Position numbers and translations under genes: made by a program. Shown in pieces: positions 6,236 to 53,016 of a DNA stretch of 64,000 nt; position 1 is the first letter of the stretch; each line of letters opens with the position of its first letter. The stretch is from Candidatus Elulimicrobiales bacterium (GTDB taxonomy: Bacteria > Patescibacteriota > Minisyncoccia > Phycocordibacterales > UBA5272): NCBI GenBank assembly GCA_034927475.1, contig JAYFPW010000002.1:193606-257605 (forward strand), written 5' to 3'. Below the pieces are notes generated by a model, which was given only the letters and a program-made list of their open reading frames with translations, made no database searches and was not told the DNA's origin.

Positions 6236-6248
6236 ATTTTAGATTTTG

Positions 6249-6332
6249 TGCGCCGAGTTGGATTTGAACCAACGTAGCCCGAAGGGCGACAGATTTACAG
6301 TCTGTTGTAATTGACCGCTCTACCATCGACGC
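6249..6332 (-). tRNA. tRNA-Tyr (GTA), type II
   Basis: Hand-folded: acceptor GCGTCGA/TCGGCGC, D-arm with GG, anticodon stem ACAGA/TCTGT with loop CTGTAAA giving anticodon GTA, long variable arm, T-loop TTCAAAT, discriminator A. Confidence 0.8.
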
Positions 6333-14894: not shown

Positions 14895-15143
14895 CTATTC
14901 TGAAAATTTTTCTAAAAATTCACTAAGCGGACGAACCCAGATCTTTCCAAGATCATTTTCGTATAAAGTTTCATAAATTACCATATCTATGAGATCATAT
15001 TTTTTATCGCTCATTTGGAGTTTGCCTAAAAATAAAACTTTATACTTTTTATTTTTATCTTTATAGTGAAAATATTCTTTTCCTATTTCTACTTTTTGTA
15101 ACATATCATCTATATCTTTCCAAAACTTCTTTTTTAAATTCAA
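14895..15143 (-). CDS. DUF1653 domain protein
   Basis: YFHYKDKNKKYKV...VIYETLYENDLGKIWVRPL. Confidence 0.6.
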   Translation of the reverse strand: MNLKKKFWKDIDDMLQKVEIGKEYFHYKDKNKKYKVLFLGKLQMSDKKYDLIDMVIYETLYENDLGKIWVRPLSEFLEKFSE

Positions 15144-16554
15144 AAAATTTATCCCCTAAAATACTTTGACGAATATCTTTTACTAAAGAAACAATAAAAT
15201 GAAGATTGTGAAGTGAAGCGATTGTTGCCCCAATCATTTCCTTACTTCTAAAAAGATGAGCTAAATAAGCTTTGGTGTATTTGTGAGCATAGCAAGACGG
15301 ATCCTCACAAACCGGACTCATATCAGTTTTATATTTACTATTAAAAATATTTATTCTTCCATCTTTAGTATAAATAGCTCCATTTCTCGCAAGACGTGTC
15401 GGAGAGACACAATCAAAAGTATCTAGTCCGTTTTCTATCCCATAAAATAAGTCTTCTATTTCACCTATACCTAAAAAGTGTCTCGGTTTATTTTCTGGAA
15501 GATTTTCATTTGTAATTTTTAATATTTTTGTCATATCTTCTTTAGTGAAACTTCCACCAATTCCAAATCCATCAAAATATTTTCCATCCAGATTCATTTC
15601 TCCCAAAACTTGAGCTGAATATTTTCGTAAATCATCATAAGCTCCGCCTTGCACAACAGCATAAAGTGCTTGCCTTTGCCCTGTTGCCCCAGAAACTCCA
15701 AGTTTTTTATGATGTTCCAGACTTCTTTTTGCCCAACGATGAGTTCTTTCTAAAGCTTCTTTTTGATAATCTTTATTAGCAAATGGACTTGTACATTCAT
15801 CAAAAGCGAAAAATATATCAGCTCCTAAATCATGCTGAATTTCCATACTTTTTTCTGGAGTAAAAATATGTTTACTACCATCGAAAACACTTTTAAATTC
15901 CACTCCATTTTCAGAAATTTTTACAAGAGATTTATTGTTATTTTTAAGGTTATTATATTTCTGCCTATCTCTTAAACGATACTTTTTAAAAAACAAAATA
16001 TCAATGATAAAGAAAAAAATAAGAGAAGAAACTGAACCAAGTAAAAAGTTCAAATCTTCACTAAATATTCTTAAAACTCCCCAAAACATAAAAGAAAGAA
16101 AAATTTCTATAAAAAGATACTTATTTCTTTTAAAGAAATCTAAAAGATTAAACTTTTTACTTATATTTTTTTCAATATTTTCATTTGCTAAATCTTCTCT
16201 AGTAGCGATTTTGGAAACTCCTACACCCATCGCAGAACCAAGAGAAAAAACTTGAAACCCTCCAGAATCTGTAAAAGTTGGCCCGACATAATTCATCATC
16301 TTAGCAAAACCGCCATGATTTTTTACAATTTCATTTCCTGGCTCCAAATATAAATGATAAGTATTGGCGAGTATAGCATCTGCTTTTACGAACTCATTAA
16401 AATTTTCTGGAAGAATGCTTTTTATAGTAGCTTTTGTCCCAACAGGAATAAAAGCTGGAGTTTCTATATCTCCGTGTGGCGTGTGAATAATTCCCACTCT
16501 CGCCATAGGTGCTTCTTTAGATTTTTTCTTTATTTCAAATGAAAACTCTTTCAT
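15106..16554 (-). CDS. tgt: queuine tRNA-ribosyltransferase with large internal hydrophobic insertion
   Basis: N-terminal IPVGT...DSGGFQVFSL and C-terminal PEKSMEIQHDLGADI...FDCVSPTR...CxxPxCxxH zinc site are canonical. About 95 extra residues with 2 predicted TM helices lie between them. Confidence 0.8.
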   Translation of the reverse strand: MKEFSFEIKKKSKEAPMARVGIIHTPHGDIETPAFIPVGTKATIKSILPENFNEFVKADAILANTYHLYLEPGNEIVKNHGGFAKMMNYVGPTFTDSGGFQVFSLGSAMGVGVSKIATREDLANENIEKNISKKFNLLDFFKRNKYLFIEIFLSFMFWGVLRIFSEDLNFLLGSVSSLIFFFIIDILFFKKYRLRDRQKYNNLKNNNKSLVKISENGVEFKSVFDGSKHIFTPEKSMEIQHDLGADIFFAFDECTSPFANKDYQKEALERTHRWAKRSLEHHKKLGVSGATGQRQALYAVVQGGAYDDLRKYSAQVLGEMNLDGKYFDGFGIGGSFTKEDMTKILKITNENLPENKPRHFLGIGEIEDLFYGIENGLDTFDCVSPTRLARNGAIYTKDGRINIFNSKYKTDMSPVCEDPSCYAHKYTKAYLAHLFRSKEMIGATIASLHNLHFIVSLVKDIRQSILGDKFFEFKKEVLERYR

Positions 16555-16559
16555 AAAAA

Positions 16560-17603
16560 CTAAAACCTTAAAATTTCTTCACATTTAGCAATAATATTTC
16601 TCGGAGATAAATCATCTTCTAAACCCATTCTTTCTACTTTTATATTTAAATGACTAGGATTTTGAGAGACTATTTCTGAAACCAAACTTCCCATACCTCC
16701 AACTTTAGAATGTTCTTCTATTGTTAAAATATTTTTATGTCTATCAGCAAAATTGCTAATAAAATTAGTTATTTTTTCATTTTTGGTTTCACTATTTGAA
16801 GAAATTAAAGACATATTTAAAACTGTAACCATATAACCCATATCTTCCAATTCTTTTGCCGCCTGAAGAGCGTTGTAAAGAATTGGTCCATAAGCGATAA
16901 TTCCTACCTGAAAAGCTGCTTCTAAGTTTTTAGAAATATAAACTACCTCTGGCAAACCAGTCCACTCTTTTATGTTTCCATCTATTTCAAAATACTCATC
17001 AGCAAAAATTTTTGGAGAGCTTTCACTGAAAATTCTAAAATAAGAAAAATCATTCCTGCTATTCTTGAAAAATCCCTTTTCAACAACTTTTAATAAATAA
17101 CTAGCTTCAGATGCATCCGCAGGAGCAAAAATATTTACACCTCCCAGATTCCTTAAAATTGCCACGTCGTTTTTAATTTCAGAATTATCTAAATAAAGTG
17201 CTTCAGCTAATTCATTTTCTCGATGAATACGAGGAGATTGCATATTTAAAAGAGTGAGATTAACCTCCTTTTCTTTATTGTGTATAAATTTAAAAATGGT
17301 TTTTGAAAGACCGTTGTAGAGTTTAAAGAAATTATCCATTAATCCTGTATGAGAATTTTTTAGATTTTCATTAAAAGCTTCGTTGATTAGAAAAACATTT
17401 TTATTTTGATTTTTTGAAATAATTGAAGAAATTTGCACAGCTTCCTCAGCTGGAAAAATATGATCTGTGTCCCCCATCGCTTCTTCTAAATTATCAACTT
17501 TGAAAATTAAATTGTTATCATCATTAAAATCGGCCAAAGTGAAAAAGATTTTTTCTACTTGATTTTGAAATTCTTCTTCTTTAAATAAATTATTAGTTAA
17601 CAT
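16560..17603 (-). CDS. transketolase C-terminal-subunit homologue (divergent)
   Basis: TIEEHSKVGGMGSLVSEIV resembles TK C-terminal TVEEHsiiGGlGsaVaE; the rest is weakly conserved. Confidence 0.55.
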   Translation of the reverse strand: MLTNNLFKEEEFQNQVEKIFFTLADFNDDNNLIFKVDNLEEAMGDTDHIFPAEEAVQISSIISKNQNKNVFLINEAFNENLKNSHTGLMDNFFKLYNGLSKTIFKFIHNKEKEVNLTLLNMQSPRIHRENELAEALYLDNSEIKNDVAILRNLGGVNIFAPADASEASYLLKVVEKGFFKNSRNDFSYFRIFSESSPKIFADEYFEIDGNIKEWTGLPEVVYISKNLEAAFQVGIIAYGPILYNALQAAKELEDMGYMVTVLNMSLISSNSETKNEKITNFISNFADRHKNILTIEEHSKVGGMGSLVSEIVSQNPSHLNIKVERMGLEDDLSPRNIIAKCEEILRF

Positions 17604-17608
17604 AGATT

Positions 17609-18271
17609 TTAATTTAAATTAGCTAAAATTATTGAAGGTTTTTTGAGATCTTTAGCATAATAAACAGCTTCACAAACAGAAGCAGGACTAAGCCCATTAA
17701 TTACTAATGTATCAAAACCTAAATTAATTAATTTTCCATTTAGTTTATTTTCTTTATTGATTTCAGTATTTACTGATTTAGTATAAGCAATAATAATAAC
17801 TCTTCGCATATTATTTTTTTGTATAAATTCTAATGCGGAAAAATTATTTAAAAGATCTAATTCGCTGACAACAATATAGTAAAATCTTTCATGTTTATCT
17901 CCAGAATCTCTAGCGGCTGTATAATAACCAATTGCTTCACCAAAACTATTTTCGACTTTTAGAAAAGTGTTTTTAGTAATATAGTTTTTTAAATTAGAAA
18001 ACTCATCGTACCCAGCATGGACTTTCACTACACTTTCTACTATATTTGCATAATTATTCGTAGAAAAAATGTCATCTTTATTTTTCCAATTTGGAACTTT
18101 TGGATCATGATTAATAGCTTTAAAATATAGTCCAGTAAAAATACCTGAAAGACTTTTGAGATTTCTTAAAGCCTTCTCACCAAAAGAAGAAAAAACATTA
18201 TCTATGGTGATTTCAACATCTTGCTGTACTAAAGCAAGCGCATCTTTTTCGTCTTTCGTTAAAGTCTTCAT
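17609..18271 (-). CDS. transketolase N-terminal-subunit homologue, catalytic motifs degenerate
   Basis: LYFKAINHDPKVPNWKNKDDIFS aligns to [27 protein letters not shown], but KGH, GDG and the TPP-binding residues are replaced. Confidence 0.5.
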   Translation of the reverse strand: MKTLTKDEKDALALVQQDVEITIDNVFSSFGEKALRNLKSLSGIFTGLYFKAINHDPKVPNWKNKDDIFSTNNYANIVESVVKVHAGYDEFSNLKNYITKNTFLKVENSFGEAIGYYTAARDSGDKHERFYYIVVSELDLLNNFSALEFIQKNNMRRVIIIAYTKSVNTEINKENKLNGKLINLGFDTLVINGLSPASVCEAVYYAKDLKKPSIILANLN

Positions 18272-29168: not shown

Positions 29169-31010
29169 TTATCTATCTGGAGGAATTTCGTAATAGCTTA
29201 TTAAATAGTTAACCAAACTAAAAAAAGATTCTTTTAATGTTTGAGAAGCGTATTGTGCCCCCCTTGGATCTACTTGATATAAGAAAATAATATATTTAGG
29301 ATTTGTCGCTGGAAAGTATCCGAAGAAAGAGTGTAAATATTTATCTTCATAATATTTACCAGTGTTAGGATTTGAAACTTGTGCGGTACCTGTTTTTGCC
29401 GCAACTGTATAATGTGGATTTTTTGCATTCATAGCTTCATCGACAACTCTTGTAAGTATCTTACTAATCCTTTCACTTGTTGAGGTGCTTTGAAAAACAT
29501 TAATAGGTTCATCTTGAACAATAACTTTTGTTGTTCCATTGTCATAACTAATACTTTCTACTACATGCGGAGTAACAAGCTTTCCTCCATTACCAAGAAC
29601 AGCTAAAGCTCTAATAGTTTGAATCGGAGTAGTAGCAATACCTTGCCCAAACCCGGCGGTAACCAAATCTACTGCAACTTTAGAATCTAAATTGCTTACC
29701 AAACCAGAAGCTTCAGATGGTAAATCGATACCAGTATATTCTCCGAAACCAAATTTGTGAAAATACTCACTTAAATTACTTCCGCCAATTTTTTCTACTA
29801 AGAAAGCAATACCGACATTTAAAGAGTCAGAGAGAATTTTTTGAAGTGGAGTATTTGGTCCTCGGGCAACCTTGTCATAATTAGAAACTCTATAACCATT
29901 CAAGACTATAGATCCGGTGTCATTATATGTTGTTGATTCATTCACCAAACCCATATCTAAAGCGACAGCAACAGTCAAAGGTTTAATAATAGAACCCATT
30001 TCATACACGCCAGAAACCAAATCATTGTTATATACAGAGATATCTGACACTTCCCGATAGTTATTTGGATCAAAAGTCGGAATCTCTTCCATGGCCAAAA
30101 TAGATCCGTCATTAATATCCATAACAATTGCTCCAATTTTTTGAGAATTCCATCTAGCTTTAGCGTCCCCCAACAGTTTTGCCACATATCTCTGAACGTT
30201 TGCATCGATGGTTAAATTTATATCACCCTCAGAAGAAGCGTGTTGCAACATTCTGGATGTATCTTTATTTTCTATATCGCTAGAATTAAAATCTGAAAAA
30301 ACTTCAGCAAAAAAGTTTGAATTAACTATATTTTTTTTATCTAAAACGTCATTGTAATATCTCTCGAGTCCATAAAGTCCAGTTTTTTTATCTTCGGAAA
30401 AGCCTACGAAACCAAAAACTTTTGCGCCAATATCTTTTTCGAAATAAACTCTACTCTTTTTTCTACTCACAATAAGACCTTTCATTCTAAGGGAAACCAG
30501 TTCATTCGCTATTTCTTCTGGAACATTTTTTAAAAGAATTTCATAACCAGAATCCTTTTGATGCATTTTTTCTAAAAAACTATCTTTATCTAAAAAAGAA
30601 ACTATTTTTGATGAAGAGCTTGCACCTTCTACAATTTTTGAATTATAATCTTCAAAAACTTTTGAAATTTTTGAAAAATAATCATTTTCTAATTCGGAAA
30701 GATTTAAGCCTTCTTCAATCCTTTTTTCAAAAAATAAATTTATTGTCTTTGGGTCTAAAGCTAAATCATACTCATTAGACATGGCTACAGCCGGAGAAAA
30801 AGTCCCTTTTTTATTAGTAAAAAATATAGACCCTCTATCAAAATTTTCTCCCGTATCATAAAAATATTGACTCTCACCAGCTCTTTTATATTCAGCACCA
30901 TGAATTATTTGTAAATAAAAAAGTCTGGCAATAATTAAAGCAAATATAAAAAAGATAACCAAAACAAAAATATTTATTCGGTTGTGAATTAATTTATTTC
31001 TTTCTGACAT
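29169..31010 (-). CDS. ftsI: peptidoglycan D,D-transpeptidase FtsI (class B PBP)
   Basis: N-terminal TM; GSIIKP (SxxK), SDSLN (SxN), KTGTA; in dcw context. Confidence 0.85.
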   Translation of the reverse strand: MSERNKLIHNRINIFVLVIFFIFALIIARLFYLQIIHGAEYKRAGESQYFYDTGENFDRGSIFFTNKKGTFSPAVAMSNEYDLALDPKTINLFFEKRIEEGLNLSELENDYFSKISKVFEDYNSKIVEGASSSSKIVSFLDKDSFLEKMHQKDSGYEILLKNVPEEIANELVSLRMKGLIVSRKKSRVYFEKDIGAKVFGFVGFSEDKKTGLYGLERYYNDVLDKKNIVNSNFFAEVFSDFNSSDIENKDTSRMLQHASSEGDINLTIDANVQRYVAKLLGDAKARWNSQKIGAIVMDINDGSILAMEEIPTFDPNNYREVSDISVYNNDLVSGVYEMGSIIKPLTVAVALDMGLVNESTTYNDTGSIVLNGYRVSNYDKVARGPNTPLQKILSDSLNVGIAFLVEKIGGSNLSEYFHKFGFGEYTGIDLPSEASGLVSNLDSKVAVDLVTAGFGQGIATTPIQTIRALAVLGNGGKLVTPHVVESISYDNGTTKVIVQDEPINVFQSTSTSERISKILTRVVDEAMNAKNPHYTVAAKTGTAQVSNPNTGKYYEDKYLHSFFGYFPATNPKYIIFLYQVDPRGAQYASQTLKESFFSLVNYLISYYEIPPDR

Positions 31011-32381: not shown

Positions 32382-32790
32382 TTTCAGCCACAGATTCTGC
32401 ACTCTTATTATTGAGAATTGAATATCTCTCCCATTCTTCTTCGTCCCAAATTTCAATTCTAGAATGCATACCAACTAACACGACTTTCTTTTTTATATCA
32501 GCAATTTTTTTAAGCTGATCAGTGATCAAAATTCTTCCCACAGAATCAAGATCGGTTTCAAAAGCGTTAGAGAGCATAAAACGAGTAAAACTTCTTGTAT
32601 CTTTACTTGCAAAAGATAGAGATGAAAGTTTTTCTGCGATTTTTTGCCATTCTTTTAAACTATATACAAAGAGCGACTTATCGAGACCACTAGTAACGAC
32701 AACCTTTTTACCAAGAACAGTCCTCCATTTTGCTGGAATAGAAATTCTTTTTTTATCATCGAGTCCGTGAATATAGTGTCCGATAAGCAT
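32356..32790 (-). CDS. mraZ: transcriptional regulator MraZ
   Basis: Two MraZ repeats, each with a DxxxR-type motif: GLDDKKRISIPAKWR and ETDLDSVGRILITDQL. Confidence 0.85.
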   Translation of the reverse strand: MLIGHYIHGLDDKKRISIPAKWRTVLGKKVVVTSGLDKSLFVYSLKEWQKIAEKLSSLSFASKDTRSFTRFMLSNAFETDLDSVGRILITDQLKKIADIKKKVVLVGMHSRIEIWDEEEWERYSILNNKSAESVAEKLSDIGVL

Positions 32791-51917: not shown

Positions 51918-52397
51918 TTATTTATCGTGATACAAATGTTTTTCTGATCCACATTTACATTTGTTTAATAAAAATTCTTTTACATATTCTTCACCGTAAT
52001 CAAAAGTTATTTCTTCGCCTTTAGAAATATTTTTTATCGCTCTCAAAAAAACTCTCTTATTTTTTATTTCACTTTCTGCGTTTGGATCACAAGAATGATT
52101 TGCGTAACGTGCAATATTTTTCTTAGAAGACCCGTCTATATTAAAATCTTTTTCCACAGAAAAAATATACTTATTATCTGGATCTTTCTTTATCTCCTTA
52201 TCAGAAAGAGTCTTTCCTATATATTCAATAATAAGCTGACTTTTTTTAATGTCCTCATCAGCAAAAAGTCCAAGCTCAGCTAATCCTTTTTTTACTTTTA
52301 CTTTTTTGTAATGATGGGCTGGTAATTTTTTTTCTAAATTAAAAAAGCTATTTAAAATTTTAGAAAAGTTTTGGATATTTTTATTTCGCTTTTTCAT
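51918..52397 (-). CDS. SET-domain protein (putative lysine methyltransferase)
   Basis: RYANHSCDPN...FDYGEEY...CKCGSEKH post-SET Cys cluster. Confidence 0.75.
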   Translation of the reverse strand: MKKRNKNIQNFSKILNSFFNLEKKLPAHHYKKVKVKKGLAELGLFADEDIKKSQLIIEYIGKTLSDKEIKKDPDNKYIFSVEKDFNIDGSSKKNIARYANHSCDPNAESEIKNKRVFLRAIKNISKGEEITFDYGEEYVKEFLLNKCKCGSEKHLYHDK

Positions 52398-53016
52398 ATA
52401 GATTTTTTAATAAATTTAGAACACCTTTCTTTTTTGAAACTTGTCTTCTCCTAATAACTAAAATTATTGCAAAGCCTAGTGCGGAAACAAAAACTAAAAC
52501 TGGAAAAGCTAAAGTTACAAAGTTATATTCAGAAAGAGCTAGTATTGAAATGAGTGCTCTGAAAGAATTAATTGCCCAAAGAGAAATTGTTTCCGTATAT
52601 GGATCTGCCCAAGACTTTCTAAGTGTGGCTTGTCCAGCTAAAGAATAAACTAAAACAAGAAGAGCTGTTGAAGCTACTGGAGCTTTAGCTAAAAGCCAAA
52701 GAGGAATTGCTAAAAGTGTTAAAACTAGAAAAACAATATCCACTTTTTTAATATTTTTATCTTCTTCTTTTATTAAACTAAGTATGCACACCACCAGACA
52801 AAGAAGAGCTACAAATAGAGTGGGTAAAGAACCTGCTCCGGCCCCTTTGGAAACTTGTAATAAAAACAAAATAAAAATAATTAAAAACCAAAGCCCCCAA
52901 GTAAAGACATGCGGTTTGGTCTTTTTATCTAAAATATCTATTATATAGAAAGAGTAACTTATAAGTACCAAAATCGCAGCGGTTATCCCTAAAAAACTTT
53001 TAACTAAAATTAGCAT
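52381..53016 (-). CDS. hypothetical polytopic membrane protein (about 6 TM)
   Basis: Hydrophobicity only. Confidence 0.45.
   Translation of the reverse strand: MLILVKSFLGITAAILVLISYSFYIIDILDKKTKPHVFTWGLWFLIIFILFLLQVSKGAGAGSLPTLFVALLCLVVCILSLIKEEDKNIKKVDIVFLVLTLLAIPLWLLAKAPVASTALLVLVYSLAGQATLRKSWADPYTETISLWAINSFRALISILALSEYNFVTLAFPVLVFVSALGFAIILVIRRRQVSKKKGVLNLLKNLYEKAK

Follow-up and report, generated by a model that had tools for sequence, protein, structure and literature searches.

Why would an enzyme that modifies transfer RNA (tRNA) carry two hydrophobic helices in a surface loop? Classical bacterial tRNA-guanine transglycosylase (Tgt) is a soluble homodimer, a textbook enzyme and a drug target. 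Here we consider the tgt gene of an uncultivated, ultra-small Candidatus Elulimicrobiales bacterium of the Patescibacteria, which lies on the minus strand at 15106-16554 of a 64,000-nucleotide stretch of contig JAYFPW010000002.1 (hereafter the window, with a GC content of about 30%), and which was delimited from a list of open reading frames (ORFs) together with Pfam and NCBIfam matches. It encodes 482 residues followed by a TGA stop, and 103 of these residues, including a 44-residue hydrophobic hairpin, have no counterpart in the Tgt of Escherichia coli or Zymomonas mobilis. In our reading, the insert is real, elaborates a variable loop on the protein surface in this lineage only, and carries a hairpin that most likely anchors the enzyme in the membrane. 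A membrane tether had been proposed in a first-pass annotation of the window, and it survives as the best reading of the sequence, supported by inference.

The Tgt core and the site of the insertion

The protein is a full-length Tgt, matching PF01702 (the Pfam TGT family) at E=9.8e-125 with 416.7 bits, and scoring 431.5 bits against a cut-off of 306.75 for the NCBIfam equivalog TIGR00430. When it is compared by phmmer with PDB chains, residues 18-107 align with residues 13-101 of the E. coli-type enzyme and residues 211-476 with residues 103-361. The N-terminal part of the TIM-barrel core (aa 1-107; minus strand, 16234-16554) ends in the active-site strand DSGGFQVFSLGS, and the C-terminal core (aa 211-482; minus strand, 15109-15924) follows the insert, which occupies aa 108-210 (window 15925-16233) and enters at a single point, directly after DSGGFQVFSLG. 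The first-pass annotation had already recognized an in-frame insertion in Tgt, and the peptide it quoted is exact; its interval, 15690-16200, is shifted, missing the first 11 insert codons and taking in about 235 nt of core. Residue numbers here include Met1, which was left out of alignments A1 and A2 and of the AlphaFold model, so that their numbering equals ours minus 1.

Judged by the catalytic residues of Z. mobilis Tgt (Asp102, Asp156 and Asp280, with the stacking aromatic Tyr106, which is Phe in E. coli), the catalytic set is present: Asp96, Asp252, Asp368 and Phe100 are invariant across 86 aligned Patescibacteria relatives. An AlphaFold2 model computed from this 86-sequence alignment has a mean pLDDT (predicted local distance difference test score) of 86, and its core superposes on Z. 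mobilis Tgt (1ozm, 1q2r) with template-modeling scores of 0.92-0.93, normalized to the target. With the catalytic aspartates invariant, a core ratio of nonsynonymous to synonymous change (dN/dS) of about 0.06 and a substrate gene, tRNA-Tyr(GUA), in the window at 6248-6332, the enzyme looks active.

Two other parts of the core depart from the classical pattern. The pocket motif GGSFTK[E/D] (aa 333-339; window 15538-15558) is invariant in 86 of 86 aligned Patescibacteria Tgt, and in these relatives it differs both from GGLAVGE, the preQ1 type, and from GG[LS][AS]G, the queuine type described for this pocket (PMC11570991). The zinc site, CxCxxC...H in form, is replaced by VCEDPSCYAH, whose cysteines (aa 416-424; window 15283-15309) are not conserved among the 86 relatives (Ser takes the place of Cys416 in 34 of them, and Trp that of Cys421 in 28), and in this region only His433 and His449 are invariant. 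Both the substrate and the metal dependence of Patescibacteria Tgt may differ from those of classical Tgt.

Three layers of loop extension

A comparison of 120 database homologues and 56 GTDB species representatives separates the loop into three layers. The first, an extension of about 18-30 residues with the motif G.GVSKIA, is present in all Patescibacteria Tgt and gives a distance of 48-72 residues between the DSGGFQ and SPE motifs. The second, further Lys/Asn-rich sequence, belongs to the subclade related to the window (76-100 residues), and the third, the two hydrophobic helices, is found in only some members of that subclade (125-141 residues). Over the same distance the window protein has 130 residues, the E. 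coli-type enzyme has 28 and most Patescibacteria have 48-72, which puts the excess at about 100 residues against classical Tgt and at only about 65-70 against ordinary Patescibacteria relatives. The earlier statement that bacterial Tgt has about 20 residues at this place is accordingly right for E. coli-type enzymes and wrong for the Patescibacteria relatives, and the question it raised, whether the insert is lineage-wide, has a divided answer: the G.GVSKIA part is Patescibacteria-wide, and the hairpin is confined to one subclade and patchy there.

In the window protein, the insert (encoded, like the rest of tgt, on the minus strand) begins with the Patescibacteria-wide extension AMGVGVSKIATREDLANE (aa 108-125; 16180-16233), in which G.GVSKIA is conserved in all 86 aligned relatives, with G, K and A invariant in alignment A2, and for which the model has a pLDDT below 50. 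It continues with a Lys/Asn-rich linker, NIEKNISKKFNLLDFFKRNK (aa 126-145; 16120-16179), whose DNA is 52% A and which places five Lys or Arg and one acidic residue in the 13 positions preceding the first helix. The two helices were assigned from hydropathy, alignment and the AlphaFold2 model. Helix 1, YLFIEIFLSFMFWGVLRIF (aa 146-164; 16063-16119; DNA 58% T), has an invariant Glu150 near its start and an invariant Arg162 at its end, and helix 2, FLLGSVSSLIFFFIIDILFF (aa 170-189; 15988-16047; DNA 68% T), ends in the invariant stretch L187-F189, with position 185 acidic in 12 of 14 orthologues. Between them lies an acidic turn, SEDLN (aa 165-169; 16048-16062; consensus SEDMN), with invariant Asp167 and Asn169. 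A basic stalk, KKYRLRDRQKYNNLKNNNKSL (aa 190-210; 15925-15987; DNA 51% A), with five Lys or Arg within its first eight residues, leads back to the core. The insert has a GC content of 23%, against 33% for the core, and rough base-composition arithmetic gives a chance of about 2e-4 for a 103-codon open frame in DNA of 23% GC; the frame is open in all of the orthologues (14 or more).

A predicted membrane hairpin

The two helices are the most hydrophobic parts of the protein, with 19-residue Kyte-Doolittle means of 1.79 (aa 147-165) and 2.37 (aa 170-189), which bears out the earlier description of them as transmembrane-like. On the Hessa scale, sums over the best 15-residue windows are 0.02 kcal/mol for the first helix and -1.78 kcal/mol for the second, and range between -0.06 and -2.97 kcal/mol in 13 orthologues. 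Every orthologue has three to five Lys or Arg on each flank (in the 13 residues ahead of helix 1, and in the 8-10 past helix 2), and a turn of 5-8 residues with one basic residue (Arg) and one or two acidic residues. In the AlphaFold2 model the two helices reach a pLDDT of 85-92, the second running on through the basic tail to about aa 206, and the segments that link the hairpin to the core fall below 50. Two hydrophobic helices, a short turn and positive flanks, as expected from the sequence of a membrane hairpin, are therefore all present.

We propose that the hairpin (aa 146-164 and 170-189) would insert into the cytoplasmic membrane with both ends inside (N-in/C-in), leaving both halves of the TIM barrel in the cytoplasm, where they would assemble normally. 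This topology is favored because two is the only number of helices that leaves both barrel halves on one side, because the charges obey the positive-inside rule around a short and acidic turn, and because a documented deletion, described below, took both helices together. The Lys/Asn-rich linkers, about 38 residues ahead of the hairpin and about 21 past it, would serve as a leash and keep the tRNA-binding face accessible; such a leash would matter, given that the chain departs from the barrel just past the active-site strand. Held in this way, the enzyme would exchange guanine-34 of tRNAs with GUN anticodons. One candidate benefit is a position near a transporter that imports the precursor base of queuosine, and another is that the two hairpins of a homodimer pack against each other by way of conserved polar residues (Glu150, Asn169 and Asp185), whose presence inside the helices suggests a specific helix packing, and more than a passive anchor. 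A bolder version, which we regard as a long shot, would have the subclade possess an integral-membrane Tgt whose homodimeric four-helix bundle (again through Glu150, Asn169 and Asp185) docks onto or joins an uptake route for scavenged 7-deazaguanines (preQ1 or queuine) and, in an ultra-small and metabolically dependent cell, couples import at the membrane directly to insertion into tRNA, with the GGSFTK[E/D] pocket reflecting a salvage substrate.

Selection on the hairpin

Sequence conservation indicates that the hairpin is maintained by selection. In the three closest pairs of carriers (window/L001, L003/L006 and L007/L038), Nei-Gojobori dN/dS over 47 hairpin codons is 0.156, 0.127 and 0.102, respectively, with core values for the same pairs of 0.061, 0.055 and 0.111. 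Pairwise identity of the hairpin is only 38-81%, and still both helices keep a 15-residue Kyte-Doolittle mean of at least 2.05 in all 14 sequences. When AT-biased neutral change that allowed no stop codons was simulated on the hairpin codons of the window until identity had dropped to 40-50%, the mean of the weaker helix fell to 1.34-1.48, and both helices stayed at or above 1.9 in only 14-23% of runs; the orthologous sequences are phylogenetically non-independent, which makes this comparison supporting evidence and no formal test. Among 11 carriers Lys145, Glu150, Arg162, Asp167, Asn169, Leu171, Phe181, Ile184 and Leu187-Phe189 are invariant. The hairpin is under purifying selection, and the dN/dS values and the drift comparison argue against a neutral, functionless stretch.

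Distribution among relatives and points against a membrane anchor

Carriers of the hairpin, at 71-90% identity, comprise 11 clusters among the best 120 matches and six GTDB species representatives, and homologous hairpins are present in at least 12 protein clusters altogether. The sequences that have it are the window protein, P0001-4, P0012, P0022-24, P0030 and P0034, together with the representatives L006, L007, L009, L011, L016 and L038. Across the Patescibacteria the loop varies from 48 to 141 residues, and it is clearly a hotspot of change.

Several observations weigh against the membrane reading, most of them from this distribution. The hairpin is clearly dispensable, because cores that are nearly identical occur with and without it and because an exact indel removes it: carrier P0003 and non-carrier P0014 have cores 98.6% identical, carrier P0023 and non-carrier P0037 have cores 95.4% identical, and the tgt genes of L003 (the locus of P0003) and L005 (the locus of P0009, which belongs to the same 450-residue non-carrier group as P0014) differ by exactly 105 nt. 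In a poorly resolved neighbor-joining tree of the cores, carriers are scattered among non-carriers, each of 100 bootstrap trees requires 10 or more changes of state, and similarity of the hairpin is uncorrelated with that of the core (Mantel r=0.07). No gene of a queuosine transporter or pathway was found among the membrane proteins of the window or in the block of genes around tgt that is common to carrier orthologues (RNR, RpiB, Rpe, a split transketolase, Tgt, DUF1653, PGA_cap and UvrB). Finally, the strictly hydrophobic cores of the two helices are short, at about 15-16 residues, and each holds a conserved acidic residue, which makes a monotopic or re-entrant hairpin, or a hydrophobic interface outside the membrane, possible in place of a spanning hairpin.

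The 105-nt indel takes helix 1, the turn and most of helix 2, and is bounded by the near-repeats TTC ATA GAA ATT TTA and TTT ATA GAT ATT TTA, and repeated loss of the hairpin may have proceeded by deletion between such short repeats. A tail of helix 2, FF[SF]IDIFFFKKYRLKNK, is the leftover expected of a deletion, and by hmmsearch it is significant only in the 450-residue group (P0005-P0021 and L008); other remnants that had been picked out by eye in hairpin-less loops, e.g. those of P0041 and P0035, were unsupported by hmmsearch and were dropped. Given the interleaved tree, with its 10 or more changes in 100 of 100 bootstraps, we reject monophyly of the carriers. This patchy history would fit many separate deletions that started from an ancestor with the hairpin, and it would equally fit recombination that passed the loop between lineages; we do not choose between them because the core tree is poorly resolved and the distances of core and hairpin are uncoupled. 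As a separate observation, the near-identical genomes L003 and L005 show 94.8% DNA identity in the 6.4 kb that lie upstream of the indel, and 86.5% in the 6.9 kb on its downstream side; this step sits at the indel and may mark a recombination breakpoint, or may only reflect different conservation of the genes.

Alternative explanations

The best-surviving alternative holds that a loop of low complexity and high AT content has expanded without gaining a function, and that the protein works in spite of the insert; T-rich tracts would happen to give Phe, Ile and Leu, and loss would cost nothing. The variability of loop length among Patescibacteria fits this idea well, as do the loops of P0023 and P0037, which are unalignable even as DNA between flanks that are about 90% identical, the absence of the hairpin from near-identical relatives, the low GC content of the insert and the high T content of the DNA encoding the helices. 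It fits poorly with the low dN/dS of the hairpin in all three closest pairs, with the 11 invariant positions that persist in 11 sequences whose 65-residue hairpin regions are 38-54% identical to that of the window (77% in the closest relative), and with the hydrophobicity of both helices, which neutral drift would erode and which all orthologues have kept. The one documented deletion also took both helices together, a topological constraint that would be relevant only if the hairpin is embedded in a membrane. On balance we consider a functionless expansion unlikely.

Rather improbable, in our estimate, is a hairpin that serves as a protein interface outside the membrane, whether as a homodimeric four-helix bundle, as a docking site for a partner, or by packing on the barrel and regulating access to the active site. 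The short hydrophobic cores, the conservation within the helices of Glu150, Asn169 and Asp185, residues of a kind typical of specific helix packing, and the emergence of the insert directly after DSGGFQ would all suit such a role. Both helices are, however, hydrophobic all round and not amphipathic, the flanks rich in Lys and Arg and the acidic turn obey the positive-inside rule in 14 of 14 orthologues, and AlphaFold2 joins the hairpin to the core through low-confidence linkers only; moreover, loss of the hairpin leaves a core that is 98.6% identical, which argues against a co-evolved docking surface. A membrane anchor accommodates these features more readily.

An artefactual or foreign origin of the insert, be it as a chimeric assembly, an intein, an intron or a repeat that entered in frame as Rickettsia palindromic elements do, is barely credible: the insert is discrete and has a GC content below that of the rest of the gene, but it has been assembled independently many times with strong synonymous divergence, matches no Rfam family, lacks intein boundary residues, has no second copy in 64 kb and has no homologue outside Tgt among 1.84e9 proteins. 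The identical protein occurs in two NCBI records, both annotated plainly as Tgt (MEA4910723.1, from a Candidatus Elulimicrobiales metagenome-assembled genome, and MPL62179.1, from a bioreactor metagenome), P0001, which is 90% identical, comes from two other sequencing runs, and P0003 and P0023 were each found on 12-17 contigs from several archives. Carrier genes differ at about half of synonymous sites (a proportion, pS, of about 0.5 for the window against L001), and they must therefore represent independent genomes. The two identical records, the diverged hairpins in independent assemblies and species, and purifying selection together rule out the assembly or insertion artefact that the first-pass annotation had kept as its alternative.

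Its remark that intein and intron hallmarks are lacking is confirmed. The first residues of the insert are AMGVG and its last are NNNKSL, after which comes V; there are no Cys/Ser...His-Asn boundaries, and a typical mini-intein is larger than these 103 residues. Rfam searched over 15500-16700 returned only a chance long non-coding RNA at E=0.62, which rules out an intron or structured RNA, and over the whole window it returned three tRNAs only. Searches of the 64-kb window with blastn and tblastn matched the insert itself and nothing else, and its inverted repeats, in contrast to the palindromic arms of Rickettsia palindromic elements or miniature inverted-repeat transposable elements, are short and weak matches between runs of A and T; a repeat or mobile element is ruled out within the window by this single copy and by the lack of a convincing palindrome. 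Promoter- and terminator-like sites inside the gene, which might split it, are not above the expectation from shuffled sequence.

Origin of the hairpin

A profile of the 65-residue hairpin region, run by hmmsearch against 1.84e9 representative proteins, gave two matches, both of them fragments of carrier Tgt, and no donor protein is detectable by this profile among these representatives. A word-indexed search with the same profile returned one fragment only and missed known full-length carriers, which makes it unusable for counting carriers. As no match lies outside Tgt, the hairpin probably formed in situ, out of T-rich DNA in a low-complexity loop that was expanding. At a genomic GC content of 30%, T-rich codons would yield Phe, Ile and Leu helices, and A-rich codons the Lys/Asn linkers. 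Thymine-rich non-genic DNA of yeast has been reported to yield peptides prone to form transmembrane segments in new genes (Vakirlis et al. 2020, PMC7005711).

TGA codons in tgt and neighboring genes

In two hairpin carriers that share 82% identity, an in-frame TGA occupies the otherwise invariant codon for Trp274 (THR-W-AKRS; 15733-15735 in the window). The sites are L011:3817-3819, in a GTDB representative, and L088:1753-1755 and L089:1422-1424, the last two being one genome sampled twice. Past the TGA tgt is intact, with a dN/dS between the two carriers of 0.067 after it and 0.12 before it, which suggests that TGA is read through or decoded as Trp at this site, or else that the same nonsense mutation arose twice, very recently. 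Genetic code 4 (TGA as Trp) is unsupported for the L011 locus as a whole, where the other genes have no in-frame TGA. In the window, the 67 chosen ORFs end in TAA (50), TAG (15) or TGA (2), the latter being tgt (15106-15108) and a doubtful 82-residue ORF at 32522-32770, and ORFs of at least 150 residues contain 126 TGG codons and no in-frame TGA. Among 17 relatives checked, the tgt stop is TAA or TAG in 16, and TGA only in L010.

Upstream of tgt, transketolase is apparently encoded by two genes (16560-18271, minus strand), an arrangement shared by relatives; one product of 347 residues contains Transketolase_C, and the 220-residue product of the upstream half has no Pfam match at E <= 0.01. 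On the other side, the DUF1653 gene (14895-15104, minus strand) has its ATG one nucleotide past the tgt stop (TGA-T-ATG), as it does in L001, L003 and L005, and an 82-residue ORF with a TTG start listed at 14895-15143 is probably an over-extended version of it. In the P0023 subclade the gene downstream of tgt encodes an ASCH domain protein in place of DUF1653; P0036 has Pfam matches to both Tgt and ASCH, and P0063 and P0085 additionally carry PF02452. Elsewhere in the window, a 159-residue protein (51918-52397, minus strand) contains a SET domain (PF00856, E=1.3e-24), typical of eukaryotic lysine methyltransferases, and the start of its gene overlaps the end of a gene for a protein with six transmembrane segments (52381-53016). 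A tRNA-Leu(CAA) called by ARAGORN at 30604-30700 (minus strand) lies inside a 613-residue ORF (29169-31010) and below the Rfam gathering threshold, and is probably a false positive.

Implications and comparison with known systems

Full-text searches of one collection of papers found no description of a transmembrane or membrane-embedded Tgt, or of Patescibacteria Tgt. If the hairpin is indeed an anchor, tRNA modification could be placed at the membrane in these minimal-cell bacteria, and nature would have supplied a clean case in which AT-rich DNA of a loop gave an old enzyme new transmembrane helices. The natural pairs with and without the hairpin, on cores 98.6% identical, would then provide ready-made experimental controls. 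Should the hairpin prove not to be an anchor, it still shows how large a hydrophobic insertion can be tolerated by a surface loop of Tgt.

With the bacterial enzymes of the Z. mobilis and E. coli type, the window Tgt shares its fold, its TIGR00430 score, the catalytic aspartates and the DSGGFQ and FDEC motifs, and it differs from them in the 103-residue insert with its hydrophobic hairpin, in the GGSFTK[E/D] pocket and in zinc cysteines that are not conserved. Rickettsia palindromic elements are in-frame insertions of about 100-150 nt that are tolerated in surface loops of conserved proteins. The insert resembles them as a short in-frame insertion in such a loop; unlike them it is unrepeated in the window, non-palindromic and found in Tgt only. 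With the de novo transmembrane segments of yeast (Vakirlis et al. 2020, PMC7005711) it has in common hairpin DNA of 58-68% T, an undetected donor and an AT-rich genome, whereas the yeast segments came from non-genic DNA and entered new genes, and here the setting is the loop of an old bacterial housekeeping enzyme and the origin is inferred.

The closest parallel in function is eukaryotic, the human QTRT1/QTRT2 complex, whose reported location is the surface of mitochondria (PMC12313893, citing Boland et al. 2009). A membrane-held Patescibacteria Tgt would parallel this location by a different route, with the same enzyme family at a membrane surface; the likeness is one of localization only and would be convergent. 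The eukaryotic enzyme is a heterodimer that associates with its membrane peripherally, without an integral hydrophobic hairpin in this loop, whereas the window Tgt would be held by a hairpin of its own.

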